Shown here piece after piece: positions 16,896 through 43,521 of a DNA stretch of 46,216 nucleotides. The DNA comes from Promethearchaeota archaeon (lineage in GTDB: Archaea; Asgardarchaeota; Lokiarchaeia; Sigyniarchaeales; SOKP01). Each line of letters starts with the position of its first letter. The stretch's first letter is position 1. Both the position numbers and the translations under genes were made by a program. Where the stretch lies: contig JAHLWH010000174.1 of the NCBI GenBank assembly GCA_019058015.1, positions 1 through 46,216 on the forward strand. The letters are read 5' to 3'. Under the pieces are notes generated by a model. It saw only the letters and a list, made by a program, of their open reading frames with translations, had not been told where the DNA came from and did not search any database.

Positions 16896-17050
16896 TTTAA
16901 TCAAAAAAAGACTACAAATATAGATATATAAAGAAAAAATTAATATAATTTTCAAATTAGAAAGAAATTCATGAAAATTTTTATATATAAATTTAAATAA
17001 ATAAATCATATAAAAGCAAACTTTAAAGAAATCTAAAAGAGTTGTTTTTT

Positions 17051-17485
17051 TTGCCAAGAATGGATAAAAAAATAATAATTAAAGCGTCTGTGAATAAAGT
17101 TTATGATATTATGAAGGACTATTCAATTTTACCAAGATGGAATATTGTTATAAATGAAGCTACTGAACTTGAACCCGGTAAATATTTCTTTAAAACAAAT
17201 GTTGGAGATGTTACAAATACTGAAATAGAAAACATTCCAAATGAGAGAATGACGTCGACACAAGAGGGTAGCCCAATGACTTCAATAGGATATATTTTTA
17301 AACCTGTAGATGAAGGAACCGAAGTGACACTTTGGGCAGAATTTGAATTAGAGGATCAAAGAAGTGTTATGGAAATAGCAGGAGACTTATTTTTAAAGAG
17401 TTTGAAAGTATATGTTGATTATATTGAAGCTGGTGGAAATCCAGAAGCATATAGAAAGAAATTTTCAGCCATAAAGAAAGCATAA
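17051..17485 (+). CDS. SRPBCC (START/polyketide cyclase-like) family protein
   Basis: IIIKASVNKVYDIMKDYSILPRWN...FKPVDEGTEVT...LKSLKVYVD. Start is TTG 17051 or ATG 17060. Confidence 0.85.
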   Translation: MPRMDKKIIIKASVNKVYDIMKDYSILPRWNIVINEATELEPGKYFFKTNVGDVTNTEIENIPNERMTSTQEGSPMTSIGYIFKPVDEGTEVTLWAEFELEDQRSVMEIAGDLFLKSLKVYVDYIEAGGNPEAYRKKFSAIKKA

Positions 17486-22116: not shown

Positions 22117-24648
22117 TCATGCTAATGCATTAAATCCCTCAAATTCTTTCAATTTACTTTTATTTTTTCTTAATTTTGTTGATTGTATTATTGATTTACA
22201 GATTGTCAAGTTTAATCCTGTTTTATGCCGCAACATATGAGGGTTTTCAGAAAGAACTTTTGATGCTATGTGATATCCAGCATTAAACAAAATCCGACCC
22301 CTGACTCTTCCTACATTCCTTAACCTTAAAACTAAATCAAATAATTCTTCACGAATTCCGTGTGTAATTCGGATTATTAATGTTTCACATAAATTTGCAG
22401 TTTTATCATCATCTAGATAGGAAGCAATTATTCCAATAAATTTGATAATTCTGATAATGTTTTCTTTAATTGAAAATAAATCCCCCGCATAAATTTTGAA
22501 TTCATCTAAAACATTTTGTAAAGGTTCTTCATCTGCCCACCAAATGAGTGGTTTCATCATTTTCATATTTCTGATTCTCGATTCTGATTTCAATACAACA
22601 AAAGAACACTTAATTAAACTTTTATAATCATTAACCTCACCGTTTTCTAGCATTTTTCTAATTTTTACACCGCTTGATGGATACAGATATAATTTTATTA
22701 TTAATTTTCCAAAATTCGAGCAAATTAATTTATTTCTTTCTTTTAATAAAAGCCCTTTCTCAATTAAATAATCTAAAATATATTCTCCCCTGACGCTCTT
22801 AGGAATAATATCATTTACATATTTAGTTATATTTATATCCGTCTGAGAAACCAAAGATAAAAAAAAACTACTTACGTGATTGCAAAAAATAAAGCTACAA
22901 GAATTTTTTCCTAGTAGATCTTCTCCAACTCTATTATTAAAATTGCAACTACAGGTAATTCCGTTATCTATATTAAATCTTATATGAAAGATTCCAAAAT
23001 CAGTTTTGACAATTCCATCTATTGAATCCTTTGAAATATTTGTAATTTTTGTTTGATAGTTGGAATTTTTGATTTTTTCTAAAATTTCTGGATTTGAATG
23101 TAATTTCAATATATTTTCTGGTGTTATTTCTTTAATTCGTAGGAATTGATCTATGGGAATTATTTTATCCTTTATGCAATTCCAGTAATATGTTTTTTCA
23201 AAAAAATTTTTTAATTCATTAAATGAAATGGATTCTTGCTCAAAAACCCTTAATAATACTTGTTCTCTTAAAGTTTCAGTAGAATTTATGGCTGATTGAA
23301 TGGGATTGAATATAGGAACCAATCGCTTCCCATCCTCTCCAATTTGAAAATAGTGATCCTCCACCCATATTTTTTCTTCAATATTTTTTACAAGTATTAT
23401 TCCGTAACCTTTAAGATCTAAACCGGGTCTGCCTGCCCTGCCGAGCATTTGAAATATCTGATTTCTTGAAAAAGGCTCAAAATAAGTAAATCCATTGCTA
23501 AAATCTTCATAAAATTTAGAAAAATCAGTAATATTATCTACACTTGTTTGATACCTTTTAAAGTCTTTAATAATTACCATTCTTGCTGGTGTGTTTATTC
23601 CTGCCGAGAGAGTTGTTGTGGAACAAATTACTTTTAAAATTCTCTTATTGAAATATTCTTCGATTATTTGTCGTTCTTTTGAAAGAAGTCCTGCATGATG
23701 GAAAGCCACACCCGCTTTTATGCAGCTCTTTAATTCAGTAATTCCTCCCTTAATATTTTCTAATTGTTGGGATAATTTTTTACAAATTGATAGTTCTTGT
23801 GGATCCAACTTTTTCTTTATAAAATTTTTCAGGTAAAGAGCAAGCTTCTGTGCTTCCTTCCTTTTATTCATGAATATTATTATTTGGCCTTTTTTCTTTA
23901 AAATTTCATTTACATAATGTTTAATGGTCGAATCTTTATTTTGAGATACTTTAATATCATATTTTAAGGGAACCGGCCTTTCATTAGAAATTATTAAGAT
24001 AAATTCTTGCCCAAGTGAAGATAGCCAGTCGCAAAAAAATTCAGGATTTGCTACTGTGGCAGATAACGCAATAATTTGAGGATTAATCAAAAATTCATTC
24101 AATCTAACAATTAATGATTCTAACCGCGGACCTCTCTCGCTCTCACCAACACAATGTATTTCATCTATAATAATTGTAGTAATTTCATTAATCCATTTTT
24201 CTTCTTTATAATTTCTTAAGATTGAATCCATCTTCTCATAGGTAGTTATAATTATATCAGCTTTTTGGAGTTCCTTATCGTCAATGACAATATCCCCGAT
24301 TGATAATTCTGTTTTTATGCCATATTTGCTGTAGTTCTTTTTAAAATATTGATATTTCTCAGAAGCTAACGCTTTAAATGGTACTAAATAAACTGCCTTT
24401 CCGTAGTTTTTGAAAATATTATTAACAATACATAATTCGCCAATCAATGTTTTTCCGCTACCAGAAGGTGCGACAACCAAAAAGGATTTATTAAAATAGA
24501 GTCCCTTAATAATTGCTTCTTTTTGTATATCTCGTAAATAATAGATGTTATTTTTTAATAAGATTCTAATTATTCTCTCATCATCTATATATTGATTAAG
24601 TTCTGAGATTATTTCCTCCGGTGATTTTTCAAAATTAGTGGTTGTCAT
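22117..24648 (-). CDS. Ski2-like SF2 helicase (Hel308/Hjm family) with an inserted SWIM-like zinc finger
   Basis: APSGSGKT, DEIH, LSAT, GVAFHHAGL, TTTLSAGINTPA, QMLGRAGRPGLD, a C-terminal HhH (LRNVGRVRGRILFNAG), and a CSC-x-CNH insert. Confidence 0.93.
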   Translation of the reverse strand: MTTTNFEKSPEEIISELNQYIDDERIIRILLKNNIYYLRDIQKEAIIKGLYFNKSFLVVAPSGSGKTLIGELCIVNNIFKNYGKAVYLVPFKALASEKYQYFKKNYSKYGIKTELSIGDIVIDDKELQKADIIITTYEKMDSILRNYKEEKWINEITTIIIDEIHCVGESERGPRLESLIVRLNEFLINPQIIALSATVANPEFFCDWLSSLGQEFILIISNERPVPLKYDIKVSQNKDSTIKHYVNEILKKKGQIIIFMNKRKEAQKLALYLKNFIKKKLDPQELSICKKLSQQLENIKGGITELKSCIKAGVAFHHAGLLSKERQIIEEYFNKRILKVICSTTTLSAGINTPARMVIIKDFKRYQTSVDNITDFSKFYEDFSNGFTYFEPFSRNQIFQMLGRAGRPGLDLKGYGIILVKNIEEKIWVEDHYFQIGEDGKRLVPIFNPIQSAINSTETLREQVLLRVFEQESISFNELKNFFEKTYYWNCIKDKIIPIDQFLRIKEITPENILKLHSNPEILEKIKNSNYQTKITNISKDSIDGIVKTDFGIFHIRFNIDNGITCSCNFNNRVGEDLLGKNSCSFIFCNHVSSFFLSLVSQTDINITKYVNDIIPKSVRGEYILDYLIEKGLLLKERNKLICSNFGKLIIKLYLYPSSGVKIRKMLENGEVNDYKSLIKCSFVVLKSESRIRNMKMMKPLIWWADEEPLQNVLDEFKIYAGDLFSIKENIIRIIKFIGIIASYLDDDKTANLCETLIIRITHGIREELFDLVLRLRNVGRVRGRILFNAGYHIASKVLSENPHMLRHKTGLNLTICKSIIQSTKLRKNKSKLKEFEGFNALA

Positions 24649-24834: not shown

Positions 24835-25260
24835 ATGGAATCAGAATTATTTGATCCAGATGACATAAAAATTTCATGCTCGGGAATATGGAAAACAGAA
24901 AGGGATCATGGTATTTTATATTTTGGGATTAAATTAGAGAATAACTCAGAATTTAATATTTATAATCTCAAATTTTTCTTACACAAAATTCCCATAGATA
25001 TGAAATTAGAGCCAAAACAAATTCATAGAATCCCAAATTTGAATCCAAAAACGAATATCTCAGTTTATTTCAGATTAATTCCTGGAAGAAATTATATTTT
25101 TGATACTGTAGAAGGGTTTGTTTCATATCGTGATCTGCGAGAAAAAATACATATTAGAGATATTGAGCCTTATGAAATCGAATTTCAAAGAGATTTTTAT
25201 ACAACGAATAAAATTTTCATAAGGAATTTGAATCAAAAAGTTAAGTCTTCTTCTATTTAA
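24835..25260 (+). CDS. Hypothetical beta-sandwich (Ig-like, adaptin-appendage-like?) protein
   Basis: FGIKLENNSEFNIYNLKFFL...IPNLNP...VYFRLIP...VEGFVSYRD alternating strand pattern. The fold call is tentative. Confidence 0.6.
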   Translation: MESELFDPDDIKISCSGIWKTERDHGILYFGIKLENNSEFNIYNLKFFLHKIPIDMKLEPKQIHRIPNLNPKTNISVYFRLIPGRNYIFDTVEGFVSYRDLREKIHIRDIEPYEIEFQRDFYTTNKIFIRNLNQKVKSSSI

Positions 25261-25296: not shown

Positions 25297-25310
25297 TTTT
25301 ATTTAAATAT
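25297..25310 (+). promoter_or_regulatory. TATA box with T-rich upstream element; putative promoter of the 4-gene operon
   Basis: TTTTATTTAAATAT, with TTTAAATA at 25302-25309, 27 nt before ATG 25337. Confidence 0.55.
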
Positions 25311-25336: not shown

Positions 25337-27709
25337 ATGGACAATTACTTATATCAAAGTGATACGACATTAGATACTCCGGACAGAGCAGATTATAAAT
25401 ATCATTATAATGAAGCAGAGAAATTGGAGAAAGAAGGAACTCTAGAAAGTCTTGAGTCGGCTATTGTTCATATTGAGATGGCAATCAATAATTTAAACGA
25501 GAATAAAACAATACTACCAGAAAAATCATTAGATTCTGAGTTAAAAAAATTCGCTGAACATCAATTAATGATTAAAACAAATTATCATGAGAAACGGATT
25601 ATTAAATTGTTAAAAGAGGTAGAAAATGAGGAGAAGAGAAAGGATTTTAAGAAATTGGTAAATTTTTATAAGAAAATAAGAGATTCAATGATTTTTTTAT
25701 ATAAATTAGGAAATAAAGGCATAAACATTAATGAAATAAATGAAGTAAAAGAGAAAATTAGTAAATTAACTAAAAAGATATTAAATGAGAATTTATCAAT
25801 CTCTTTGAACAAAAAATCAAGTAAAACTGAGCAGAAGCCACATTCAGTTGAATTTAAAGAGATTAATGCAGAATTTGAGGAAATCAATTTTGACACAAAT
25901 GATCAAATACCGTTACAGAATCATGATACTGAAGGAGAAATAAATATACCGGTAGAGGTTGAATCCATGGTAATTGATCAAAATGAATTAGCTCAATCAG
26001 AAATGATATTATTAAAGGATAATGAAGTGGAGGAGGATAGCATAAATTCACTTGAAAAAATCAACAATAAGAATTTCTTAGATCAAATGATGGTGATTTC
26101 AGATACTCCTGAAATTGAAGAATATAGCATGGAGAGTGAAATTTTAGATAAAAAATCGGTCAAAATGTTATTAGCCCAGTTAAGAAAAACGTTAATTGCT
26201 AATAATTACCAAATTTTCCCGATTGATTTTCAAGAATTATATAATAGGATTGATTTTCTTGCTATAAAGATCTTTCATATTAATGAATTTCTAGATATAT
26301 GTCATATTCTACCTTTGAGACTCGCTAAACTATACGGTTTATTACTTGTCTCAGAAAAAAAGATCGATTATAATAGTAATAATACAAATCTATCTCAGAT
26401 TGAGCGTAAAAATCTAGTAAAGTCATTAAAAGAAGATATAAAAGATGTTGTTCAGATCTTATCAAATGATCTTGAAAATGAGGGCCCAATCGCTAAAAAT
26501 TTCATTTCTTATATTAATGATGAAATTTCCTTACAAAAAAGTAGAATATCAAGTAAAGGCTATTTTTATTGTAGAGGTCGTATGCAATACAATTTCATAA
26601 TTCAGCCAATTATTATTTCCCAAAACAAAATTGGATTTTTGGAGAGGAATATTCCATATGCATTTCAACAATCTTCTGATTTATATATTATTAATATTAA
26701 TGATTTAAATGATCTATTAGGTTACTTGGAACAGAAAAAAAGTTCAATTGAAAAAATTTGTATCAAAAAGCAGCCACTTAATTTATTTATAGATAATAAG
26801 ATAAAATTAAGTAATGCTTTAAGGTTAATAAGCATCGTATTAGGAGTATTTGGGGTTTCTTACTTACTTTCATTGTTTGTAAATGATAAAATTTTTGTCA
26901 GTGTGTTTCAAGTATTACAAATTCCATTTATAATAGGAATAATACTTCTATTAGGTTTCTTTATATACATATATAAAAAAAACCAAGACAAGATCATTCA
27001 AAAATATAATCTACCTTTCGGATTTTCCCATCCTGATTTTGATGGGCAAAATTTATCTATTGCTTTGAATCAAATTAATCCTCCAGAAAGAGAGCAATTC
27101 CTATACGAAATTTACAATAAGCGTCCAATTCCCAATGATTTATTACAAAAGATCCAAAATCCTCACACTTTTTCGGAATTTGTTGAATTATTTGAAACAA
27201 ACTTAGTAAATATCGCATTAAATAATGAGAATTTAACTAAATTAAAACAATCTTTTAAATATTTTAAACAAAAACATAGTTTCTACAAAGCATATTGTAT
27301 TCTTCGGTCAATTCTTGTGTTGAAATTACGAGATTTTATAAGACATCGCTTGAATAAATCAACCGATGATATCCATAATATCCCTTCCCTACTAGATTTA
27401 ATATGCGCTGAATGTAATATCCCATTTAACAATGAGTCTATTAAAGCGATAAAAAGAATAGAGAAAATTCGGGAACTGAAGGGACAAATAAATCAATATT
27501 TTTTTACTCAAATTGTAAATATAGTATACGATATTATCGAAATAATTCAGAACAATACCAAATTGACTGAAGATCATAAAGAATTTAATAATTTTCATGA
27601 AGAAAATGTTCAAAAATTTGAAGAGAATACTATTTTTGAAAAAAGTATTGGTTATACGGGAGGAGACCCACCAGAAAATATATTTAAAGATTTCTTAAAG
27701 GATGATTAA
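25337..27709 (+). CDS. Hypothetical 790-aa 2-TM protein (operon gene 1)
   Basis: Helical N-terminus, acidic linker, alpha/beta domain, TM hairpin (LRLISIVLGV...LLLGFFIYIY) and helical C-terminus. Confidence 0.85.
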   Translation: MDNYLYQSDTTLDTPDRADYKYHYNEAEKLEKEGTLESLESAIVHIEMAINNLNENKTILPEKSLDSELKKFAEHQLMIKTNYHEKRIIKLLKEVENEEKRKDFKKLVNFYKKIRDSMIFLYKLGNKGININEINEVKEKISKLTKKILNENLSISLNKKSSKTEQKPHSVEFKEINAEFEEINFDTNDQIPLQNHDTEGEINIPVEVESMVIDQNELAQSEMILLKDNEVEEDSINSLEKINNKNFLDQMMVISDTPEIEEYSMESEILDKKSVKMLLAQLRKTLIANNYQIFPIDFQELYNRIDFLAIKIFHINEFLDICHILPLRLAKLYGLLLVSEKKIDYNSNNTNLSQIERKNLVKSLKEDIKDVVQILSNDLENEGPIAKNFISYINDEISLQKSRISSKGYFYCRGRMQYNFIIQPIIISQNKIGFLERNIPYAFQQSSDLYIININDLNDLLGYLEQKKSSIEKICIKKQPLNLFIDNKIKLSNALRLISIVLGVFGVSYLLSLFVNDKIFVSVFQVLQIPFIIGIILLLGFFIYIYKKNQDKIIQKYNLPFGFSHPDFDGQNLSIALNQINPPEREQFLYEIYNKRPIPNDLLQKIQNPHTFSEFVELFETNLVNIALNNENLTKLKQSFKYFKQKHSFYKAYCILRSILVLKLRDFIRHRLNKSTDDIHNIPSLLDLICAECNIPFNNESIKAIKRIEKIRELKGQINQYFFTQIVNIVYDIIEIIQNNTKLTEDHKEFNNFHEENVQKFEENTIFEKSIGYTGGDPPENIFKDFLKDD

Positions 27710-28451
27710 AATGATTGAGAATAGTGAGAAGATTGTAAGATGTTTCAAAATTTTGTTTTTCATAGGGATGGGACTGGTTATTGCATCCTTTTTCTCAGAG
27801 TGGTATTATTACGCTTATATCATCAATGGAACTACAATGATTTGGGGATATAATATAATCATAGGATGGAATAGCCTTACAAATAATTCTGAAAATTATC
27901 CTGGGATAGTTGAAATTGATATGATAATCCTTTCACTATATATGTTTATTTTTATTTTAGCAGCAATATCATTTATTTATATTTCACTTGAGCGTCCGCT
28001 TTTTAGCAGAAAAGATTTTTATAATAAGGTAAAGACGTTAAATTATATTTTTCCCGTATATCTTGGATTTAATCTTATAATATTAGCATTATTTTTATTT
28101 AGTTTATTCCAGGCTAATTTCTATTTTCCATTTTTGAAGCTTTATATTGTTTCCGAAGACTCTGAGACACTTTATTGGCTTGGTCCTGGATGTATTTTAC
28201 ATATGATATCTTTTATTATTATGTTTCCATTCTCTACTGCTGTTTTACAAATCCCTCGAAAATTTAAATTAAAGGAGAATAAAATTGAAATTGATGAAAT
28301 AATTGCAATAAGTTCTAGAAAAATAGATTTTGAGAAAATTATTATGAAAGAAAGGATAAAGAAAGATACAACATTCAATCAATCTTCTAACGGTAAATTC
28401 CAAAAAGAAAAATTTAATCTGGATAATATACGCTTGGAGAGTGAATCATAA
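27702..28451 (+). CDS. 4-TM membrane protein (operon gene 2)
   Basis: Four hydrophobic helices and a charged tail. Overlaps gene 1 by 8 nt. Confidence 0.85.
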   Translation: MIKMIENSEKIVRCFKILFFIGMGLVIASFFSEWYYYAYIINGTTMIWGYNIIIGWNSLTNNSENYPGIVEIDMIILSLYMFIFILAAISFIYISLERPLFSRKDFYNKVKTLNYIFPVYLGFNLIILALFLFSLFQANFYFPFLKLYIVSEDSETLYWLGPGCILHMISFIIMFPFSTAVLQIPRKFKLKENKIEIDEIIAISSRKIDFEKIIMKERIKKDTTFNQSSNGKFQKEKFNLDNIRLESES

Positions 28452-29333
28452 GTGTCAAAATTATTAGAAGCCACTAAATTGTTATTACACAATAAAAATT
28501 TCAATGAATTGTATAAAATTTATCTGGATTTGATTTATAACACGGTTATTGAAATCGGTGTAAAATTAAATATTAGAACTCCTAAATCCAATGAAAAGAT
28601 TTATGATTATATGATAATAATCGATAAGTTCCTCTTAAATAATATTAATATTGTTTTATTTGGAGAACATATTCAGAAAATAATTACTTTTTACAATTTA
28701 TATGATAAAGCTGAAAATTCTTCAGAAAATCTAATAATAGATCAGTATGATGTAAAAGAATTAGTAAAAGAATATTATGAACTTAAAGCCTTGCCCGTCC
28801 CTAATGTTTTTCAAGATATTGAGAGTTATAAGACAAGCAAATATGCCAATTTTCAAACATTAAAGGCTTGTAATTTAATTTTTGGTAAAAATATTAAAAA
28901 TTATAATAGTAGTACCAACATTGAAGATGCATTATATGAAATGATTTCCAATCGAATTCAAAATGATTCTGATAAAATCAGGAGAGATTATCAGAAGGGA
29001 AAGCTATCTTTTGATAAAAGTTTCAAAAAATTGGCAACCTTAGATTCAATAAAAAAAACAATAGAGACTTCAAAGAAAAAATCCAGCCAAATAGAGATCA
29101 GTGGAACCTTGTCTGATAATTTAGAATATAAAATCTATACATTACGGATGCCGGGATATCTCATATTATCTTTTGGAATTATTTCAGCGATATTATTGGG
29201 TTTTATATTTATGGAGATATTTTCAGTGCCAATACTGGCTATATCTTTATATCAAAGTGTGATATTTTCTGGATTAATTTGTTTTATTTGTTTTTATATC
29301 TTCATTAAATTCTTTATTAAAGAAAAAAAATGA
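28452..29333 (+). CDS. Helical protein with C-terminal TM hairpin (operon gene 3)
   Basis: The GTG start abuts the previous TAA. Two C-terminal TM helices. Confidence 0.85.
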   Translation: MSKLLEATKLLLHNKNFNELYKIYLDLIYNTVIEIGVKLNIRTPKSNEKIYDYMIIIDKFLLNNINIVLFGEHIQKIITFYNLYDKAENSSENLIIDQYDVKELVKEYYELKALPVPNVFQDIESYKTSKYANFQTLKACNLIFGKNIKNYNSSTNIEDALYEMISNRIQNDSDKIRRDYQKGKLSFDKSFKKLATLDSIKKTIETSKKKSSQIEISGTLSDNLEYKIYTLRMPGYLILSFGIISAILLGFIFMEIFSVPILAISLYQSVIFSGLICFICFYIFIKFFIKEKK

Positions 29334-32300
29334 GTAAATCACCAACAGAAATCACAACAAGTTTGAGTCCTTCAGAGAAAGAAGATTTAAATAGATTTGG
29401 AGCCGTTGCTGATATTAATATTTGGAATGAGCGTCCTGCCTTCAAAGACGTGAATAAATTTTTTATTTTTTTAAAAAGAGGTTTTATCATTGGTATATTT
29501 ATGATATTTACTTTATTATTATATTATTGTAGTGGAGCATTGGTAGTTTCATTCTTATTCCCAAGTTTGATAATTATTTCTTTTGTGTTAATATTTTTCC
29601 AAGATATTTTTTATTATTTTCCTAAATTCAGATATTCCGGAATAAAAAGAATTGAATTATTTAAGAATTGCTCATTTAGGATTAAAGATAAGAAATCTGA
29701 CACTTTATTCATTTTCAATAGAAAAGAAAATTTAGTTACTGGTATAAAGTTATTTAAAATAGACATATTACCTGAAACAATTCAAGGAAATGTTTATCGA
29801 TTTTTAAATTCTCTTGATAGAGTAGGAGTTCCTTATGTTTATCAAATAATTCAGACTTCAAATATTCAGTTAATAAAGAGAGCTTCGGACTTTTCTGATA
29901 AAGAAGAAAAATTAAGAATTCGAAATACTCTACAAAATTCTGAGGCGTCTTTTAATACTACTTTATTCTTGGCAACTTCTTATTGTAATATGAATAATAT
30001 AATTTCTGTTGCATTGGATGAAATTCAAAATTCATTAGATCATTACGGGAAAAGCATTATTTCCTCCTTTGTGGCTTTTTTTCCTCATTATCATTTAACA
30101 GAACTAAAAGGATTGGAATTAATAAATGGATTGTATACTTTATTCTTTAAGACAGAAGTTGAACCGAGAGAAGATAATAATAAATCATTTAAAAATAGAA
30201 ATTGTAGGTCTACAATAATCAGAATTGTTTATTTGTTTATTTTTATTAGTTTCGAAGCATTTTTATTACACTCGGTAGGCATTGGTGTTGATTTTAATAT
30301 ATTAATTAATTTAATTGTTTTGATTGGAATTGTATTCATCTACTGGCGAGAAGTATTTAGTTCTTTGACAGACAAATTCATCTTTAGGGATTTTTTTAGA
30401 TTACATCTTTTTAGTGATTATAAATTTTTTATGAGAGCTGGTATTCCAGATTCTGTTTTTGTTTGGAATGAAAAATTGAAATTATTAACCGGGATTAAGC
30501 TATTTACGGTTAGAGATATTATGTCGCGTGGTTATTGTAACCCCGACAAATTCATCAGAGCAATTTCGCCTTTTAAATTGTCTTATTCATATACTACAAT
30601 TCAAGCGCCTCTTTCTCAATTTGATATTGAAAAAGATTATATGAAATACTTTAGAAATAAGATTATTTACAGCATGCAAAAAAATTATAATAATGAGGAG
30701 AAACTTGTAGAATGGCTTTCTATGAGAGCTGGTATTTGGCGATTTATGTTTCTTATTTCTATAAATTCCTACAAATTTACATCCTATGTTTCAAATGAAA
30801 TTATTGATAATTTGGATATGGAATTACAGGAGAAATTTGAGACCATTCACCTTGCGTTTCAGGAAACATATAGTGATTATGTGCCATTAGTATTAAGAAA
30901 TCGAAGATTAATTTTAGGAATTAAAGTAATTCTTTTAAAAAACAAGTTTATCCGTCGTGGAGGATCAAATTTACCTTATTCTCTTATACAAGGTAAAATT
31001 TTGCAAGAAGTTAATAAAATAATGAATGAATTAAAGAAAGGAATTAAAACTCAAGTAGCTGCGGAGTTTAATTCACCCTTAAGCTTAAAAAATGAAATTT
31101 TAATTGGTAATACAATAAATACTGAATTTTTTAGGGAGGAAATACCTTTTGGTTTATTATTTAATCAGATTAATAACTTAATCATTAGTGGTGGAACTCA
31201 CAGACAAAGAGAAGATATTAGTTTGAAAATAATAATAGAATTGGTTAAAAACAAAATACCTTCAATTATATTTGATTTTAATGGAAAATATAGTAGGCTT
31301 ATTGATATTTTCTCTAAGACACAATTTTATCATGATTTCTATTATTTTAAACTAGGTCAAAGTTTTAATATCGAGTTATTGAATTCGGGAATAAAAAATG
31401 ACCCCAATAATTTAGAATATTTGGACTATATCTGTGAAGTGATCGGTTGTGTAAGAAAATTAAATGATAAAGAAATACAAACGGTTAGGGATTTGATATC
31501 AAAAGTCCCAATGGATTCTAAATCAATAACTATGGATATGGAAATGGAAGATAAGTGTAAAAAAAATAAAAATTATAATGAAAAGTATATTGCCTCAATA
31601 TTTAATGACTATACTCATCAAACTAAAAATACAATCAGTGCGATAGGTATTGTGGAGGGTAATATTAATTCAAATGATTTTCTAAAAGATGCTAAAACTG
31701 TTATTATTGATATGAGTATTTTACGCCCCCCATTTAATTTATTTGCAATGTTTGTGTTAATCTCAAGAATAATTCATTATACTCATGAGGGGGGAGATTA
31801 TATTCCTAAGTTGTTAGCAATGCCTAACGTTGAATATTTTTTCGATAAATTTTATCTTGATAAATTTGTTAAGCCTTATACAATTGATAGATTCCTTGAT
31901 CCATTGAAAGAAAAAGGATTTGGATTTATGTTCTTAGTTAATGAAGTAAATAAATTACATCCAACATCTTTTGATTATATTCAAAATTTTATGGCTCTAA
32001 AAACGGTGCAACCGGCAGACTTAATGGTTTTAAAAAACCTTCTTAACTTGCAAGAAATAGGTCAAGGATATTATACAAAATCACGAAAAAATACATATCA
32101 TATAGATTTTTTGAAACAATTAAGGGATAATAATGCTATAGTTTCAAGAGATGATATTTACCAACCCTTTCCCGTTAAAATCGATATTGATTCCCTTACG
32201 GCGATAGCCGCTCCAAAGTATTCGGAATTAAGTGAATATATGAAAAGATTTGGGTATAATTTTCAGAAGACGGAAGAACAAATTTTAAATTCGGTGAAAA

Positions 32301-33184
32301 AAACGATATTTGAAAAAGATTTCCACGAATATCTTTTTCTTTTAGATGATATTATCAATTTTCTTAGAGCCTTAAATCGAATAGACACAATTGGTAATAT
32401 TTATGAGTATAAAGTTAAAGAACAACTTTTTAAGTTTATACACAAAAAATTAGTAGCTAAAGGCTACAAGAGAAAACAAATTAGTAAAATTAGAGATAAT
32501 TTGTTTAATCTATTAATTTCCCATCAATATTTGGTTGAAAATCACCCAAGAGAAGCTGGTGGCTCTCAATCGATGAGGACATCGTATTCGGTTGGACATC
32601 AATTTGTGAAAGCATTGGATGATCATTATAAAACACAAGAATCTTTCGATCACCAGGTTGATTTACAACCTATTGAAGATGAAAAAATTGAAGTAAATAA
32701 AATTATCCCTAAAAAGGAAGAGATTTTTGAATATTTCGTTCCACCAGATAGTGAACAGAATAAGCAACAAGTGATAATAAATACTAACAAAAAGATTAGT
32801 AATTGTAAAAATATCTTGGCAAGTCTTATAGGAGCATTTTTAGTTAATGGAACTATAAGGGCTGGTAAAGAATTAAATAGAAATCATTATAAAGATACAA
32901 TTTTAAAAGTGAGAAATGTATTATCTAAATTTTTATATAAATTATATGATTTTAAATTTGATGAAAAAAGTAATGTAAAAATCCACAGTGATGTACTATT
33001 AGAAGCGGTAGATTTTATTGCTGAATCTAATATCATTCCTTTCAAAGGGCAAGAATTATATGACATTCTCAAAAAGATTAATATTATTGAAATTAAAAGT
33101 GGAGAGTTAGAAAATACTGCAAAAAATCATTATGAAATGCTTTATGATTTTACACAAAAAATTTTGATAGGGGTCTTAGATTAG
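29330..33184 (+). CDS. Membrane-anchored HerA/FtsK/VirB4-superfamily protein with degenerate ATPase motifs (operon gene 4)
   Basis: ATGA overlap with gene 3. HerA-like landmarks appear in order: ILIGNTIN, NLIISGG, SIIFDFNGKY, FNIELL, TVIIDMS, KGFGFMFLVNE, NFMALK, DFLKQLRDNNAIV...PFPVKI. Confidence 0.75.
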   Translation: MSKSPTEITTSLSPSEKEDLNRFGAVADINIWNERPAFKDVNKFFIFLKRGFIIGIFMIFTLLLYYCSGALVVSFLFPSLIIISFVLIFFQDIFYYFPKFRYSGIKRIELFKNCSFRIKDKKSDTLFIFNRKENLVTGIKLFKIDILPETIQGNVYRFLNSLDRVGVPYVYQIIQTSNIQLIKRASDFSDKEEKLRIRNTLQNSEASFNTTLFLATSYCNMNNIISVALDEIQNSLDHYGKSIISSFVAFFPHYHLTELKGLELINGLYTLFFKTEVEPREDNNKSFKNRNCRSTIIRIVYLFIFISFEAFLLHSVGIGVDFNILINLIVLIGIVFIYWREVFSSLTDKFIFRDFFRLHLFSDYKFFMRAGIPDSVFVWNEKLKLLTGIKLFTVRDIMSRGYCNPDKFIRAISPFKLSYSYTTIQAPLSQFDIEKDYMKYFRNKIIYSMQKNYNNEEKLVEWLSMRAGIWRFMFLISINSYKFTSYVSNEIIDNLDMELQEKFETIHLAFQETYSDYVPLVLRNRRLILGIKVILLKNKFIRRGGSNLPYSLIQGKILQEVNKIMNELKKGIKTQVAAEFNSPLSLKNEILIGNTINTEFFREEIPFGLLFNQINNLIISGGTHRQREDISLKIIIELVKNKIPSIIFDFNGKYSRLIDIFSKTQFYHDFYYFKLGQSFNIELLNSGIKNDPNNLEYLDYICEVIGCVRKLNDKEIQTVRDLISKVPMDSKSITMDMEMEDKCKKNKNYNEKYIASIFNDYTHQTKNTISAIGIVEGNINSNDFLKDAKTVIIDMSILRPPFNLFAMFVLISRIIHYTHEGGDYIPKLLAMPNVEYFFDKFYLDKFVKPYTIDRFLDPLKEKGFGFMFLVNEVNKLHPTSFDYIQNFMALKTVQPADLMVLKNLLNLQEIGQGYYTKSRKNTYHIDFLKQLRDNNAIVSRDDIYQPFPVKIDIDSLTAIAAPKYSELSEYMKRFGYNFQKTEEQILNSVKKTIFEKDFHEYLFLLDDIINFLRALNRIDTIGNIYEYKVKEQLFKFIHKKLVAKGYKRKQISKIRDNLFNLLISHQYLVENHPREAGGSQSMRTSYSVGHQFVKALDDHYKTQESFDHQVDLQPIEDEKIEVNKIIPKKEEIFEYFVPPDSEQNKQQVIINTNKKISNCKNILASLIGAFLVNGTIRAGKELNRNHYKDTILKVRNVLSKFLYKLYDFKFDEKSNVKIHSDVLLEAVDFIAESNIIPFKGQELYDILKKINIIEIKSGELENTAKNHYEMLYDFTQKILIGVLD

Positions 33185-33278: not shown

Positions 33279-33593
33279 TTATTCTTTTATTTTTTTACCA
33301 AGTTTCATAATAATTGGAAGCATTTTAGTCAATTCCATAGCAGGCGTAGTTTTTATGAATTTAAAAACACCCGGTTTGGCGAGTCTCCAAACTGCTGTGC
33401 CTTGTACCATTTGTTCTTCAGTGTCCGCTTCTGTTATTGATATGCCCCAATAATCAGAGGTGCTGATATACCAAGCAATTGTCTTTGTGCCTTCAACTGG
33501 ATACAGTTTCTTGCTAATAATCATTTGCGCCATCTCCGATAATTCTGATGGATCAAAATCTGGATTTAACTCCCAATATGAAATAAATATCAT
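33279..33593 (-). CDS. DUF3303-like small alpha/beta protein
   Basis: MIFISYWE...EGTKTIAWY...WGISITEADT...TTPAM pattern. Confidence 0.65.
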   Translation of the reverse strand: MIFISYWELNPDFDPSELSEMAQMIISKKLYPVEGTKTIAWYISTSDYWGISITEADTEEQMVQGTAVWRLAKPGVFKFIKTTPAMELTKMLPIIMKLGKKIKE

Positions 33594-36656: not shown

Positions 36657-36881
36657 ATGGCACAAATAACTTCGATAATTTTAATAATAATTGCATCTTT
36701 GGTAATTGGATATATATTTTTCTTTATCAAAAATGTTATATCATTTTATATAAATTCAAATTACAACTCCTTGATTTTTTACAGAGAGTTTTTTTTTCTT
36801 TATATAAATCATTTTTATTTTATTTTTATAGATAAGAGATATCAAATATTGTATTATGAAAGAAACAATAAGAAATATTAA
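36657..36881 (+). CDS. Small hydrophobic hypothetical protein
   Basis: ATG lies 21 nt after TTTAAATA (36628-36635). N-terminal TM. Low-complexity sequence. Confidence 0.4.
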   Translation: MAQITSIILIIIASLVIGYIFFFIKNVISFYINSNYNSLIFYREFFFLYINHFYFIFIDKRYQILYYERNNKKY

Positions 36882-37230
36882 AAATATATCAGCATATACA
36901 GCAAACACTCAATTAAATACTTTAAATTTCATCGTAGAATCCATAAAAGATATTATTTTTGACACTCAATATTTAGCAATATTAAAAGAGACAATTTTAA
37001 AATTAATTGATGGGCAAATTGAACAAAAGGACTTAAAAAAATTGATAATTGAGCATGGAGTTAGTTCGGTGGAAGATATTAAAAAATTGATTGAATTATA
37101 TACTGAAATAGAGATTAAAAGAATTATTAAAAGGGTTGAAGCACAAAAAGATAAAATTAAAAAATATAATCAATTGCTTTCAAAAATTGCTCCTAGAGTA
37201 GAAAAAATTTATAACAAATTGAGTTTATAA
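36856..37230 (+). CDS. Hypothetical helical/coiled-coil protein upstream of hef
   Basis: 124 aa, ending 7 nt before the helicase start. Confidence 0.7.
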   Translation: MKETIRNIKNISAYTANTQLNTLNFIVESIKDIIFDTQYLAILKETILKLIDGQIEQKDLKKLIIEHGVSSVEDIKKLIELYTEIEIKRIIKRVEAQKDKIKKYNQLLSKIAPRVEKIYNKLSL

Positions 37231-37237
37231 AGAGTGA

Positions 37238-39295
37238 GTGAAAATTAGCAATTCAAGGACTTTAAAAAATGAAGAGAATAATCTATTTAAATTCAATTTT
37301 CTTAAAAACGAGAAAATTGATCATAGAGAGTATCAAATAAATATTGCTAAGAAATGTTTTGGTAATAATTCCTTAGTTGTGATTCCAACTGGATTAGGGA
37401 AAACGATAATATCTATAATTGTTGCAGCTCATACTCTTGAGAATTCTCCACCACATTGTAAAGTGATAATTTTAGCACCAACACGTCCTTTGATTAACCA
37501 ACATCGTGAAAACTTCTTAAAATTCATGAATATTCCCAGTGAAAAATTCAGTATTTTAACTGGACAGATTGAACCAAATAAAAGAACATATGAATTTATG
37601 AATAATCAGGTCTTATTTTATACTCCTCAAACATTAAGGAATGACATCTTAAATAACAGATATTCTTTAATGAATGTTTGTTTAGTTATATTCGATGAGG
37701 CCCATAGAGCCCAAGGAGATTATGCTTATTGTCAAATTGCCGATGAATATATTGAGCATAATAATGATGGAATTATACTTGGTCTTACTGCCTCTCCTGG
37801 ATCAAATAAAGAAAAGATTTCTATTTTATGTAAGAATTTACACATTCCCTTAAACAACATTTATCTAAGAACACGTAAAGATAATGATGTAAAAGATTAC
37901 ATCCAGCCAATGAAAATTTGGAAAGTTGGTGTTGATATGACAGATTTAATGAGATTAGTTCATTCAGCTTTAAAAAATATGATTCAAGAAAGATTAAATT
38001 ATCTAAATTCTCTTGGATTTCTCGATTCTAATAAGGGACAATTGGAAAATATCTATAAGAAAGATTTAATAAGATTAAATAGAGAACTTTTAGAAATAAT
38101 TAATGGAGATAGAAGTAAAACAGGTGTTTATAAAGCATTATCGATTAATGCACAAATACTTAGGCTGTTTCATATGTTAAGCTTAGTTGAAAGTCAAGGA
38201 CTTGATTCATTATTATCTTATTTAAAATCTATGAAAAATCAATCTTCAAAAAAAAATGCCTCTAAAGCGTTAATTAGTTTAGCGAATGATTATGAAATCA
38301 ATAAAATCTTCAATGAACTTCAACAATATAATGAAATAGATGAACTACTATTAATCCATCCAAAATTTAATATTTGTAAACAAATAATCCTAAAGGAGCT
38401 GAAGGTAAATCCTGATACAAGAATTATAATATTTTCAAAACTAAGAGATTCAGTAGCAACTATCACTTCTAAATTAAAAAAAAATAGTTTAATAAGACCA
38501 AAAAGATTTGTGGGACAAGCAACTAAATCAAGTCAAGATAAAGGACTTTCTCAGAAAAAACAGATAGAAATTCTTAATGATTTTAAAGAAGGGAAATATA
38601 ATGTTTTAATTTCTACAAATGTCGCAGAAGAGGGGCTTGATATTGCAGAATGTGATCTTGTTATATTTTATGATGTTGTTGCTTCAGAAATTAGACTTAT
38701 ACAGCGTAAAGGGCGAACAGCTAGAATTCGTGAGGGTAAAGTAGTTATCCTTTATTGTAGAGGAACTTCAGATGAGATATATTTACATATTTCTTTAAAT
38801 AGACTTAAAAAAATGCATGAATTATTAAAAACCCCGAAAAAAATCCCTGAAATTATTAAACCAAAAAAAAAAAATGATAATTTAGATAAGTATCTTTCTC
38901 CTATTGTAAAATTAAGTAAAAATATTCCTTTATTTTTTGGAATTCGACAATTTCTGAGAAATTCCGGCATTATGTTTCAGATATCTTCCTGCCAATATCA
39001 CATTCATATTGGAAAAAAATTAGGGATTCATATTTTTCCAGCAAGAAAGATTACTAAATTGAACAGTGAAGGTCTTCTTAAAGACTGGATTCATGAATTT
39101 CAAAGCAAGTTCGATCTAGCTGTGATAATTGCAGAATTTCTTGATTTCGAATCGATGTTTGAAGAAGACCTAAATCTCGTAAGACATAAGATTTCTAGAA
39201 TTGGAGATGGTTATGAAATCCCAGTAATTTTTATCGGTAAACAAGAAGAACTTCAAAAGATTTTAAAAGGTTTTTTCGATAAGATTCTAAAATAA
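37238..39295 (+). CDS. hef: Hef/FANCM (MPH1)-family SF2 helicase with a degenerate C-terminal ERCC4-like domain
   Basis: REYQ, PTGLGKT, LAPTRPLINQH, DEAHRA.G.YAY, LTASPG, HPK, FVGQA...GLSQKKQ, STNVAEEGLDI, IQRKGRTAR. Confidence 0.92.
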   Translation: MKISNSRTLKNEENNLFKFNFLKNEKIDHREYQINIAKKCFGNNSLVVIPTGLGKTIISIIVAAHTLENSPPHCKVIILAPTRPLINQHRENFLKFMNIPSEKFSILTGQIEPNKRTYEFMNNQVLFYTPQTLRNDILNNRYSLMNVCLVIFDEAHRAQGDYAYCQIADEYIEHNNDGIILGLTASPGSNKEKISILCKNLHIPLNNIYLRTRKDNDVKDYIQPMKIWKVGVDMTDLMRLVHSALKNMIQERLNYLNSLGFLDSNKGQLENIYKKDLIRLNRELLEIINGDRSKTGVYKALSINAQILRLFHMLSLVESQGLDSLLSYLKSMKNQSSKKNASKALISLANDYEINKIFNELQQYNEIDELLLIHPKFNICKQIILKELKVNPDTRIIIFSKLRDSVATITSKLKKNSLIRPKRFVGQATKSSQDKGLSQKKQIEILNDFKEGKYNVLISTNVAEEGLDIAECDLVIFYDVVASEIRLIQRKGRTARIREGKVVILYCRGTSDEIYLHISLNRLKKMHELLKTPKKIPEIIKPKKKNDNLDKYLSPIVKLSKNIPLFFGIRQFLRNSGIMFQISSCQYHIHIGKKLGIHIFPARKITKLNSEGLLKDWIHEFQSKFDLAVIIAEFLDFESMFEEDLNLVRHKISRIGDGYEIPVIFIGKQEELQKILKGFFDKILK

Positions 39296-41628: not shown

Positions 41629-42162
41629 CTAAAGCAAATTTGCATTTTCCATCATTACACGAGTTAAAGCAATGAAGACCGATTCAACATTTTCGCCAGA
41701 TTTAGAAGAACATTCAGTGTATCCAATAAAATCACGAGATTTTGCCGTTTCTATTGCTTCTTCTCTATTCACAGTTCTTTTTAGAGAAAGATCTGCCTTC
41801 CCTCCGACCATTAAGATTGGAATTTTGTTATAATCTTCCTTTAAACCTTGACTTATTACTTCAAGCCATTGATTTAAATTTTTAAAACTGGAATATCTTG
41901 TTATATCATACATGAAAATGCCTCCAGAAGCCCCAATTATATAACCAGGTAAAAGAAATCTGAATCTTGACTCTCCTGCAAAATCCCAGATTTGTAAAGA
42001 GATTTTTTTCCCGCCAAGATTTATATTTTTTAAGTGAAAATCAAGACCTATTGTCATTAATGAATCACTTTTAAAAATACCAGTTACATAACGATAAGTT
42101 AATGCAGTCTTTCCTACTCCACCCTCCCCACAAATAAAAATCTTAAAAACTGCATCTCGAAT
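41629..42162 (-). CDS. Rab-like small GTPase; true start appears to be ATT at 42162
   Basis: The frame extends upstream of ATG 42057 as (I)RDAVFKIFICGEGGVGKTALTYRYVTGIF. Also TIGLDF, LQIWDFAGES, GGKAD and ECSSK. Confidence 0.93.
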   Translation of the reverse strand: MRDAVFKIFICGEGGVGKTALTYRYVTGIFKSDSLMTIGLDFHLKNINLGGKKISLQIWDFAGESRFRFLLPGYIIGASGGIFMYDITRYSSFKNLNQWLEVISQGLKEDYNKIPILMVGGKADLSLKRTVNREEAIETAKSRDFIGYTECSSKSGENVESVFIALTRVMMENANLL

Positions 42163-42429: not shown

Positions 42430-43521
42430 TTAGATAAAAGAAAATAGTTTCCTCTGCGTGAAAGTTATTAATTTCTTCTTTTTAAAATAAATAATGCTTT
42501 TTTCGTAATTATTAGTAAATTTAATTATATTATTTTTAATTCTTTTTGAATTTAATGTATGATCCTCACACAGAAATTCCATAATTTTCTCTATTTGGGG
42601 ATAATTCCAGTTAAAATTAGAATATTTGCTAATTACTTCGGGAAATAGAAATATTTTTCTAATCTCTGCGATTTTTTTTTCATTTAACCTTGAGAAATCA
42701 AATTTAGACGCGCAATTTTTGATAACTGATTCAATATGGCCAAATTTTTTAATAAACCGTAATGCTAATTTGGGACCTATTCCCATAATTCCTTTATTAT
42801 AATCTGTTCCAATAAGCATTGCGATATCGACTAATTGAAATATATCAATGCCCCATTTTTTTAAATTCTCGTTTAATTTAATGATGGATGGTTTTACTTT
42901 TGCATATTGCCAACTATTATTTATTTTCCTTACTCTCGATTTTGATAAATTTCTAACTTGTCTCAAACTTCCGAAGACTAAACAATCAAAATCCTGACTA
43001 ATTGTAAAATCTACAACTTTATCTTTGACCAAACAAGCACATTGTGACTCCGCTGATGCAGGAGATTCCACGTAAGGAATTCCCAAATATGATAACATCT
43101 TTTTTGATTCTTGAATTGTATTAATCCACAAAAATTCTTTACCAGTAGCGATTTGTTGAGCAAGTTGGTAATTATGATTTTCTATTGATTCTTTGTATTT
43201 TTGTTTAATATATTGGAAATCATGTAATTTATCTTTGGTTATCAATCGTTTATATGGATGTACACAACCATCAAAGCAAAAAATTGGGAGTATTTTTTTA
43301 AAATAATAAAAATTTATTCGATTTAACAGTCCATAAAGATGAGAAATAATCCTTCTTGTCCGATCTATCATATATTTTGAGTTGAAATAACTGGATTTTT
43401 TATAAGAATAATTTAATAAAGACATGACTACATTAGGTCCATCTACTGCAACTATACTGCCTTCCAAATCCTTTAATTCAATTTGATGAATAGTCAGAAT
43501 ATCTTTAATTTTTACTCCCAT
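42430..43521 (-). CDS. fen: Flap endonuclease 1 family protein (atypical active site)
   Basis: MGVKIKD, VAVDG, SHLYGL, FCFDG, SQDFD, IGTDYNKGIMGIGPK and a C-terminal PIP box QRKLFSF. Confidence 0.9.
   Translation of the reverse strand: MGVKIKDILTIHQIELKDLEGSIVAVDGPNVVMSLLNYSYKKSSYFNSKYMIDRTRRIISHLYGLLNRINFYYFKKILPIFCFDGCVHPYKRLITKDKLHDFQYIKQKYKESIENHNYQLAQQIATGKEFLWINTIQESKKMLSYLGIPYVESPASAESQCACLVKDKVVDFTISQDFDCLVFGSLRQVRNLSKSRVRKINNSWQYAKVKPSIIKLNENLKKWGIDIFQLVDIAMLIGTDYNKGIMGIGPKLALRFIKKFGHIESVIKNCASKFDFSRLNEKKIAEIRKIFLFPEVISKYSNFNWNYPQIEKIMEFLCEDHTLNSKRIKNNIIKFTNNYEKSIIYFKKKKLITFTQRKLFSFI

Follow-up and report, generated by a model that had tools for sequence, protein, structure and literature searches.

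To our knowledge, VirB4 is the one protein that no type IV secretion or conjugation system lacks, and these systems are considered to depend on its ATPase activity. In Gram-positive competence, ComEA is a helix-hairpin-helix (HhH) DNA receptor and ComFA a superfamily 2 (SF2) helicase-like motor; in FtsK, the gamma domain is a winged helix. The Sulfolobales Ced system (PMC11868833) comprises CedA, CedA1, CedA2, and CedB together with CedD and CedE; the VirB4 N-terminal domain is divided there between CedB and CedD, and both proteins are described with ATPase domains having common sequence features. Here we analyzed a four-gene operon (g1–g4) of a Loki-type Asgard archaeon, located at positions 25337..33184 of a stretch of 46,216 nt (contig JAHLWH010000174.1; hereafter the window). 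Its g4 protein descends from VirB4 but fails the defining catalytic features, and the partners of g4 are new. We consider it somewhat more probable than otherwise (roughly 55%) that the four proteins form a membrane complex built from a VirB4 core, with g4 as a non-catalytic scaffold and a dedicated Hel308-like helicase.

A direct check of the open reading frames (ORFs) confirmed the positions of the four genes as originally predicted, all on the forward strand:

25337..27709, forward strand: g1, a membrane protein of 790 amino acids (aa)
27702..28451, forward strand: g2, a 249-aa protein with four transmembrane (TM) helices
28452..29333, forward strand: g3, a 293-aa protein with a GTG start and a C-terminal TM hairpin
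29330..33184, forward strand: g4, a 1284-aa VirB4-like pseudo-ATPase

The genes had been described as overlapping or abutting, and the sequence, read directly, bears this out: g1 and g2 share 8 nt (ATGATTAA), with a further in-frame ATG at 27711; the TAA stop codon of g2 directly abuts the GTG start of g3; and g3 and g4 are joined by an ATGA overlap. The array stops at g4, because the next downstream gene (33279-33593) is convergent, on the opposite strand. Ratios of nonsynonymous to synonymous substitution rates (dN/dS) against a same-genus locus (L031) were low—0.21 for g1, 0.28 for g2, 0.23 for g3, and 0.18 for g4—so all four genes are real and constrained by purifying selection. Of 20 loci around g4 homologues, 16 had a compact, co-directional g1-g2-g3-g4 array with unchanged gene order, including one in which g3 was found only by profile and one cut by a contig end after g3. 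The other four loci, which lack g1–g3, comprised a paralogue from the same genus, two representatives of a second paralogue type, and one locus from a distant genome. The gene order is thus conserved, and of the claim that the products form one membrane complex this part stands: the four genes are a conserved unit. The role in cell-cell contact that had been suggested along with it found no support.

The single TATA box that had been placed before the operon is no evidence for a promoter:

25302..25309, forward strand: TATA-like octamer TTTAAATA, 28 nt before the g1 ATG, indistinguishable from background

The octamer pattern TTTAWATA occurs 57 times in the window (27% G+C) against 48 expected, and six forward-strand copies lie inside the operon itself.

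Transmembrane helices were called by a Kyte–Doolittle hydropathy scan. It yielded two helices for g1 (493-548), four for g2 (10-33, 67-97, 113-145, and 157-184), two for g3 (231-290), and four for g4 (44-98 and 294-346), in agreement with the earlier count of 2, 4, 2, and 4; the g4 helices form two helical hairpins in the AlphaFold2 (AF2) model.

According to the structure models, g4 is a complete VirB4 in build, to which TM hairpins, a winged helix, and a helical tail have been added:

29459..29623, forward strand: first TM hairpin of g4, residues 44-98 (model helices 43-68 and 71-96)
29648..31009, forward strand: VirB4-type N-terminal domain of g4, residues 107-560, in two homologous halves
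30203-30379, forward strand: second TM hairpin of g4, residues 292-350, inserted between the two N-domain halves
31052..32227, forward strand: HerA/VirB4/TraG-type RecA-like domain of g4, residues 575-966
32405..32593, forward strand: winged helix of g4, about residues 1026-1088, after the ATPase-fold domain

The first hairpin lies at what would be the site of the VirB3 fusion in VirB3-VirB4 proteins. Homology of the two halves of the N-terminal domain was evident from a comparison with hhalign (probability 99.1%, E 1.3e-18). Structures 8rtb, 8rtd, and 7o41-7o43 of plasmid R388 and 4ag5 of T. pseudethanolicus served as references for VirB4/TrwK. Residues 1-560 were modeled by AF2 from an alignment of 35 sequences, with a predicted local distance difference test (pLDDT) of 81.3 and a predicted template modeling score (pTM) of 0.81. 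The model (residues 107-560) was superposed on TrwK 13-393 with a VIA Z of 26.0 (root-mean-square deviation (rmsd) 4.5, 325 residues aligned). Foldseek gave 14 matches with E <= 0.001 for this model, and the 11 listed (ranks 1-10 and 13) were all chains of the R388 type IV secretion system (T4SS), from entries that hold TrwK/VirB4; rank 15 already had an E of 0.095. The next VIA matches were the ESX components 6umm_A (Z 13.2) and 7b9f_E (Z 8.1), the rest reaching at most 6.6. No HerA chain was found among the listed structure matches of the 1-560 model. The module of TM hairpin and alpha/beta fold at residues 47-557 resembles membrane components of the mycobacterial ESX type VII system.

The second model, of residues 560-1110 (alignment of 43 sequences, pLDDT 81.5), had 144 Foldseek matches in the PDB at E <= 0.001. 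HerA of S. solfataricus was the first of them (6.4e-13), and HerA defense scaffolds and VirB4 4ag5 (6.1e-9, TM-score 0.65 on the target) were also present. In VIA comparisons, HerA 4d2i_A (Z 24.8, rmsd 4.6, 315 aligned), DndH-C (Z 24.5), and VirB4 4ag5_A (Z 24.3, rmsd 4.2, 329 aligned) were followed by TrwB (22) and FtsK 6t8o (Z 14.2). A profile of the g4 family matched 8j4u_M (E 5.1e-6), 8xau_A (4.1e-5), STIV B204 (4e-3), and 4d2i (5e-3) in the PDB. Since HerA, DndH-C, and VirB4 tie over this part, it is the N-terminal part that decides for VirB4. In the 560-1110 model, the winged helix consists of helices 467-484 and 489-505 and a beta-hairpin 509-529. It follows the ATPase fold in both the long and the split forms of the family; its sequence support comes from a weak helix-turn-helix (HTH) match to BsuBI_PstI_RE_N in 4 of 11 relatives, and a split-form relative matched HTH_24 at 29.4 bits, above the cut-off. 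The C-terminus of g4 is a helical tail of 175 residues.

The split form is found in distant Asgard families: a membrane protein of about 280-350 aa with the hairpin and one N-domain half, and a second protein of about 480-535 aa with the dead ATPase fold and the winged helix, small membrane proteins being encoded alongside. Forms of about 780-850 aa with a single N-domain half also exist, and five proteins of one Asgard family, f31, are about 790 aa long.

The g4 protein had been assigned to the HerA/VirB4 superfamily, and it does model as a HerA/VirB4 RecA-type fold, with residues 1-560 forming the full VirB4 N-terminal domain. The fold part of that assignment thus holds in the models; at the family and motif level it does not. 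No significant Pfam or NCBIfam model was found for any of g1–g4, and neither CagE_TrbE_VirB nor DUF87 of Pfam matched g4 at E <= 1. DUF87 matched 3 of 11 g4 relatives (best E 9.5e-5), and a scan of the archaeon's own genome with PF01935 (DUF87) detected ordinary DUF87 proteins at eight other places, five of them above the Pfam cut-off, without picking up g4. The nucleotide-binding motifs are missing as well, which the original prediction overlooked:

31190..31213, forward strand: degenerate Walker A position of g4, residues 621-628 (GGTHRQRE); R627 stands where the lysine would be, and E628 where Ser/Thr would be
31808..31843, forward strand: degenerate Walker B position of g4, residues 827-838 (KLLAMPNVEYFF)

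In hidden Markov model (HMM) alignments to 8j4u_M and 8xau_A, KLLAMPNVEYFF aligns with ..LLLEEAHHY.. of HerA. Where the acids of Walker B would be, the long form has P-x-[IV]-[DE]; the split forms retain D-D/E-x-D/E. The flanking HerA/VirB4 blocks are intact in g4 (PSIIFDFxGxYS, KTVIIDLS, and the Walker B strand). G622 and R627 are invariant among 11 close relatives; across 147 family representatives an arginine at the lysine position is common, not universal. The pattern GxxxxGK[ST] was present in 0/147 representatives anywhere in the protein and in none of the aligned P-loop strings; a Walker A at the P-loop column was found in 0/43 aligned relatives, 0/7 split forms, and 0/5 f31 proteins. 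Because the lysine and the Ser/Thr of the P-loop are both gone, hydrolysis of Mg-nucleoside triphosphate in the usual way is, by established P-loop chemistry, not expected from this sequence.

These data bear on the proposal that the operon encodes a literal Ced/T4SS-like translocator with g4 as its membrane-anchored ATPase motor. The full VirB4 architecture would fit such a motor, as would two features described for Ced (PMC11868833): CedB and CedD are VirB4/HerA-type proteins with N-domains matching parts of that of VirB4, and Ced is ultraviolet-induced, to be compared with the DNA-repair neighbors of our operon. Against it stand the loss of Walker A throughout the family and of the Walker B acids in the long form, which largely refutes it, the lack of a Pfam VirB4 or DUF87 match in g4 of the window, and the fact that no CedA-like, pilin-like, VirD4, or relaxase gene was recognized in the window. 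Since Walker A is lost family-wide and Walker B in the long form, g4 is not a motor of the Ced/T4SS type, and we regard this proposal as very improbable. The loss of nucleotide-binding and catalytic residues argues for g4 as a scaffold rather than a motor.

We compared g4 with the closest described systems. With VirB4/TrwK it shares both the N-terminal and the RecA-like domains and a predicted attachment to the membrane on the cytoplasmic side. In addition to the altered Walker positions, it differs by its two built-in TM hairpins, one of them between the halves of the N-domain, by the winged helix and the 175-residue extension after the ATPase fold, by the lack of a Pfam VirB4 match, and by its setting in a chromosomal, vertically inherited operon around which VirB2, B3, B6, B8, D4, or relaxase partners were not recognized. 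Like Ced, compared here by description only, it belongs to an archaeal chromosomal membrane system based on VirB4/HerA-type proteins and tied to DNA repair. The one-half and two-half N-domain forms of the g4 family, fused or split, also recall the CedB/CedD pair as described in PMC11868833. Unlike Ced, the g4 family has lost its ATPase motifs, no homologue of CedA, CedA1, or CedA2 was recognized in family scans, and a dedicated SF2 helicase, not reported for Ced, is linked to the operon.

HerA gives the best profile and fold matches to the C-terminal domain of g4 and has the same layout of conserved blocks between the Walker positions, but the N-terminal domain of g4 is of VirB4 type, TM hairpins are present, and the ATP site is lost; furthermore, there is no NurA in the window, and the SIR2 or DUF4297 partner of the SIR2-HerA and DUF4297-HerA systems is absent from the operon. 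The order of four TM helices, a domain of the FtsK-HerA superfamily, and a winged helix is that of FtsK/SpoIIIE, from which g4 differs by the weaker fold match (6t8o), the VirB4-type N-domain, and the absence of an active ATP site. In outline only, a membrane protein with an (HhH)2 domain and a membrane-associated SF2 translocase able to reel single-stranded DNA (ssDNA) resemble ComEA/ComFA; there is no sequence relation between the two, no ComEC-like channel was found, and the HhH domain, which g1 of the window lacks, has a predicted cytoplasmic location.

The operon is also linked to a helicase and to genes of DNA repair. The original prediction had noted Hel308, Hef, and FEN1 nearby, and all three are present, FEN1 at some distance:

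22117..24648, reverse strand: Hel308-like (Ski2-type) helicase, 843 aa, divergent from g1, with Pfam domains DEAD, Helicase_C, and Helicase_dom4_arc
37238..39295, forward strand: Hef-like helicase, a recurrent but loose neighbor (also in L045, L047, and L126)
42430..43521, reverse strand: FEN1 (XPG_I), 9 kb from the operon, a recurrent neighbor of the module in distant lineages (L052 and L121)

Because these genes recur beside the module in other loci, their proximity is a conserved trait. An orthologue of the Hel308-like gene adjoins the operon in 13 of the 16 full-operon loci and in 0/4 of the loci without g1–g3. Of the seven split-form loci, which belong to other families, four have a Hel308-like gene next to the module (E 1e-75 to 3e-115 to the window helicase), upstream on the same strand in L051 and L057 and divergent in L052 and L053; in a fifth split-form genome (G117) it lies 8.4 kb away. 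In family f31, the helicase gene directly follows the VirB4-like gene in 5/5 genera examined. The two overlap by ATGA in L121 (read directly) and by 4 nt in L122 and L123 (from ORF coordinates), and the helicase is in two ORFs in L124 and L125. In total, the helicase link is found in seven Asgard families and three arrangements.

The f31 locus L121 encodes, in order, RadA, two small ORFs, XPD, two small ORFs (one with TM helices), the VirB4-like protein, the helicase, a 519-aa TM protein, an AAA-like protein, a 7-TM protein, a RadA paralogue, and FEN1; its polytopic partners are TM proteins of 200, 519, and 331 aa. In L052, FEN1 is the second gene downstream of the module, and in L056, RadA is the third gene upstream of it; the f31 genomes encode a further RadA outside the cluster.

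The adjacent helicase is, judged by sequence comparison, a divergent paralogue distinct from canonical Hel308. Genomes of six other families have an additional Hel308-type gene at a site away from the module. We built a quick maximum-likelihood tree of 29 helicases. The non-adjacent paralogues of these six families formed one clade (Shimodaira–Hasegawa-like approximate likelihood-ratio test (SH-aLRT) 99). Helicases of a third group, which have about 860-890 aa, formed their own clade (SH-aLRT 100); all 13 module-adjacent helicases fell outside both. A single clade of the 13 adjacent helicases—a group named after the tree was viewed—was not rejected by the approximately unbiased test (p-AU 0.28). 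The non-adjacent L128 aligned full-length with Pyrococcus furiosus Hjm and other solved archaeal Hel308-type helicases at 513, 484, 482, and 450 bits. For the window helicase, the match to P. furiosus Hjm was confined to residues 22-506 and scored 282 bits, much like its matches with ASCC3, Slh1, and Brr2; the f31 cassette helicase scored 250 bits to solved archaeal Hel308/Hjm. In the family of the window, the adjacent helicase of about 845 aa was the only Hel308-type gene in 6/6 genomes checked (G000, which is the genome of the window, G146, G148, G184, G188, and G206), in which no canonical Hel308/Hjm was found.

If the operon served a purpose that does not involve DNA, such as protein export or membrane remodeling, the helicase neighborhood would be a meaningless inherited order. 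The absence of a recognized family for g1–g3, the lack of an HhH domain in g1 of the window, and the resemblance of the TM-hairpin and alpha/beta module of g4 to the ESX component 6umm_A could be read in this way. The helicase link is, however, kept across the seven families and three arrangements, including translational coupling; HhH and winged HTH (wHTH) modules are present, and RadA, XPD, FEN1, and Hef recur nearby. We therefore give such a function hardly any credence.

The g1 protein consists of a predicted cytoplasmic N-terminal region, a conserved central domain (about 270-470), the TM hairpin, and a conserved C-terminal tail. Its homologues carry an N-terminal (HhH)2 domain, recognized as Pfam HHH_5 in 13/16 (best E 8.6e-15), and the g1 profile matched only HhH domains in the PDB (the N-terminal domain of RadA/Rad51, L32e, NusA, Topo V, and Pol beta). 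The tail (27640-27709, ending ..FLKDD in the window) reads K-Y-x-S-F-L-E/D-D in 16/16 homologues, with K769 and D790 invariant, and looks like a docking peptide. For the central domain, a PD-(D/E)XK-type nuclease fold is no more than an idea suggested by residues D306..K311..P326 and by one sub-threshold AF1548-like_C match in 1/16 homologues.

Profile searches with g2 returned no match to a family or to a PDB entry. Alone among the subunits, g2 has predicted outward loops of notable size (about 35 and 25 aa); they are aromatic-rich and conserved, and its relatives share a predicted cytoplasmic C-terminal motif, DLDKLIAxEEL (about residues 205-220). The g3 protein has a predicted cytoplasmic helical domain of about 230 aa before its C-terminal hairpin. 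It had no PDB match in a profile search, and its homologues showed only sub-threshold matches to DUF2207_C (7 of 15 scanned). No relation among g1, g2, g3, and the N-modules of g4 was detected by hhalign beyond the TM segments. A complex prediction for g4 1-560 with g3 scored 0.00, below the mark, and speaks neither for nor against a contact. No partner of VirB2, VirB3, VirB6, VirB8, or VirD4/TraG type and no relaxase was recognized by Pfam, NCBIfam, or PDB profiles in g1–g3 or elsewhere in the window; remotely VirB3-, VirB6-, or VirB8-like folds may still be present in g1–g3.

By the positive-inside rule, all large domains of g1–g4 are predicted to be cytoplasmic. This topology, which includes the HhH and wHTH modules, would suit a membrane-tethered scaffold for repair or segregation, in which a ring of dead VirB4 holds chromosomal DNA or stalled forks for the helicase, RadA, and nucleases and no channel exists; the docking idea is common to this and to the preferred reading below. 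The loss of the ATP site, the restriction of outward loops to g2, and the failure of family scans to recognize a pilin-like or surface component agree with such a tether. The 2+4+2+4 TM helices and the polytopic partners in L121 go far beyond the need of an anchor, the outward loops of g2 are conserved and rich in aromatic residues, and the ancestry is that of a translocon, all of which speaks against it; we put its chances at about one in four.

The reading that we prefer is that the operon encodes a chromosomal, cytoplasm-facing membrane complex descended from a VirB4 core of the T4SS/Ced type. Here g4 would be a scaffold without catalysis, probably a ring like its relatives, anchored by its own two TM hairpins and probably joined in the membrane by g1 (2 TM), g2 (4 TM), and g3 (2 TM). 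The winged helix of g4 would hold the DNA, together with the RadA-like (HhH)2 domain that g1 carries in most relatives. The actual work would fall to the dedicated Hel308-like 3'-5' DNA translocase, docked at the membrane, and DNA would be passed to or from the enzymes of recombination and fork repair—RadA, XPD, FEN1, and Hef.

A more far-reaching version, toward which we lean within the preferred reading and to which we attach a lower overall probability, is a real, helicase-driven transfer of DNA across the membrane, as Ced-like import or exchange. The helicase would reel ssDNA through a channel made by the polytopic partners and hand it to RadA, XPD, and FEN1; in Loki-type lineages, the module helicase would have replaced canonical Hel308. 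A channel is favored by translocon ancestry, by the 12 TM helices per set with extra polytopic partners elsewhere, and by the conservation of the outward loops in g2. It is disfavored by the predicted cytoplasmic location of all recognized DNA-binding modules, the lack of a recognized surface or pilin-like part, and g1 of the window without HhH. Should transfer occur, Asgard archaea might possess a third DNA-transfer apparatus, beside bacterial T4SS/competence and crenarchaeal Ced/Ted, with the VirB4 ring as a passive gate and the helicase as the motor; this, too, we consider tentative.

Several observations weigh against the preferred reading of a non-catalytic scaffold with its own helicase. 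Adjacency of the Hel308-like gene fails in 3/16 full-operon loci (L033, L045, and L048, the last cut by a contig end) and in 2/7 split-form loci (L054 and L055, of one genus). The 13 loci with adjacency come from kin genomes within one family and are not independent, so that the weight rests on the seven families. The helicase tree lacks a resolved backbone, and in it the non-adjacent helicase L134 (G005) groups with the window clade. The HhH domain is absent from g1 of the window, of L031, and of L044, and DNA binding by g1 is thus not universal. Contact among the four subunits is read from gene order alone. Twelve TM helices per protomer set exceed what a mere anchor needs and fit a channel better than a docking site. 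Finally, the conserved R627 at the lysine position and the invariant R919 and R940 leave room for some binding of phosphate or nucleotide.

The g4 family is widespread. A word-indexed search detected 11 members; the family was present in 137/400 genomes of the phylum and in 103/134 genomes of the family to which the window belongs, often in two copies, and an exhaustive profile search gave 143 representatives at E <= 1e-30 and 525 at E <= 1e-10. The related loci came from metagenome-assembled genomes labeled Promethearchaeota or Promethearchaeia, with a few labeled Hermod-, Hod-, Thor-, or Odinarchaeota. This distribution, together with one weak viral-contig match and the lack of any PADLOC or meaningful PHROG match, confirms the operon as chromosomal, as had been proposed. 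A mobile-element origin was considered and rejected: the viral-contig match has 27% identity over 117 residues, the G+C content is even, and the chromosomal neighbors are conserved. The single PHROGs match, phrog_34854 (E 9.7e-5), covers only 40 low-complexity residues of g1.

The same distribution bears on a possible nucleic-acid-sensing conflict (defense) system on a HerA-fold scaffold with lineage-variable effectors, like SIR2-HerA/DUF4297-HerA. HerA-fold rings that scaffold antiphage complexes are among the top Foldseek matches (8xav, 8j4u, and 8zit), and paralogues of g4 have other partners: CDC48_N and TPR proteins in L034 and L035, a methylase fragment and a PD-(D/E)XK gene next to a copy on contig C211 of the archaeon's own genome, and, after the split form in L054, a PLD-type nuclease. 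On the other side, none of 11 proteins had a PADLOC hit; neither HEPN nor any further effector domain was recognized in Pfam scans of g1–g4, 15 g3 homologues, four homologues of a "fifth gene", or the g4 C-terminus, nor was a conserved R-x(4-6)-H present in the g3 or fifth-gene alignments. Occurrence in so large a share of the family's genomes with a stable gene order is unlike patchy defense islands, the neighbors are core recombination genes, and the adjoining helicase is the only Hel308-type gene of the family. The N-terminal domain, moreover, is of VirB4 type, and HerA defense scaffolds were not matched there. Defense is accordingly an improbable function for the operon as a whole; a conflict role is possible for some branches of the family (the CDC48_N/TPR paralogues and the C211 copy).

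Several of these copies and paralogues were analyzed individually. The archaeon's own genome (G000) carries a partial second copy of g4 (C211:17368-18792; L058:6640-8793), 56% identical over residues 456-931 and cut by the contig end. One N-terminal module is visible in it; it stands after an Eco57I-type methylase fragment and near a PD-(D/E)XK endonuclease gene, with g1–g3 not beside it. The second paralogue type (L034:5356-7346 and L035:5087-6757) is 34% identical to g4 and has no Hel308-like neighbor; upstream of it are a stand-alone CDC48_N-domain protein (171/186 aa) and a TPR protein (500/368 aa). In G148, a genome of the same genus, a remnant of the g4 N-terminus (C5:218471-218827; 66% identity) is interrupted by four stop codons and maps some 5 kb away from the Hel308-like gene, and an intact g4 homologue is located elsewhere (L032, on C10), without g1–g3; by sequence, the operon of this genome seems to have decayed at its original site. 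A large protein with an M28-peptidase domain (888-1016 aa) precedes the split module in two families (L054:3497-4432, L055, and L056:1309-3975).

Other genes of the window were less closely associated with the operon. A 141-aa ORF between the helicase and g1 (24835-25260, forward strand) had no family match, was conserved only in L031, and is probably outside the system. The homologue of the "fifth gene" is the following:

36856..37230, forward strand: 124-aa ORF, a weak "fifth gene" homologue (25-27% identity), 7 nt upstream of the Hef-like helicase

This helical ORF had no family match. Its homologue overlaps the end of g4 in L036, L039, and L042; its membership in the system is uncertain. 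The reverse strand at 11973-17057 encodes a protein of 1694 aa that contains a prenyltransferase alpha-alpha toroid domain; its homologue stands directly upstream of the operon in L033, where Hel308 stands in most other loci. Genes for a Ras-family (41629-42057, reverse strand) and an Arf-like (44237-44884, forward strand) small GTPase flank FEN1; genes of this type are typical eukaryote-signature genes of Asgard archaea.

In the open full-text literature (including PMC10946056, PMC13623763, PMC12993045, and PMC13748450; supplements aside), we found nothing published on the g4 family, on a clade of VirB4 proteins devoid of ATPase motifs, or on any membrane protein partnering Hel308. Throughout Asgard archaea, full-length VirB4 relatives of one whole clade have abandoned ATP and are nevertheless maintained by selection; the clade has gained DNA-binding modules and has formed links with recombination genes and with a Hel308-like helicase of its own. 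The Loki-type genomes (six checked) carry only the module-linked paralogue, which matters for users of "Hel308" annotations there. We take the operon as a sign of a hitherto undescribed DNA-handling machine at the cell membrane. If our reading is true, it would show a secretion motor domesticated into a scaffold; DNA exchange in Asgard archaea would become testable, with a bearing on the origin of sex and on the tethering of chromatin to the membrane.

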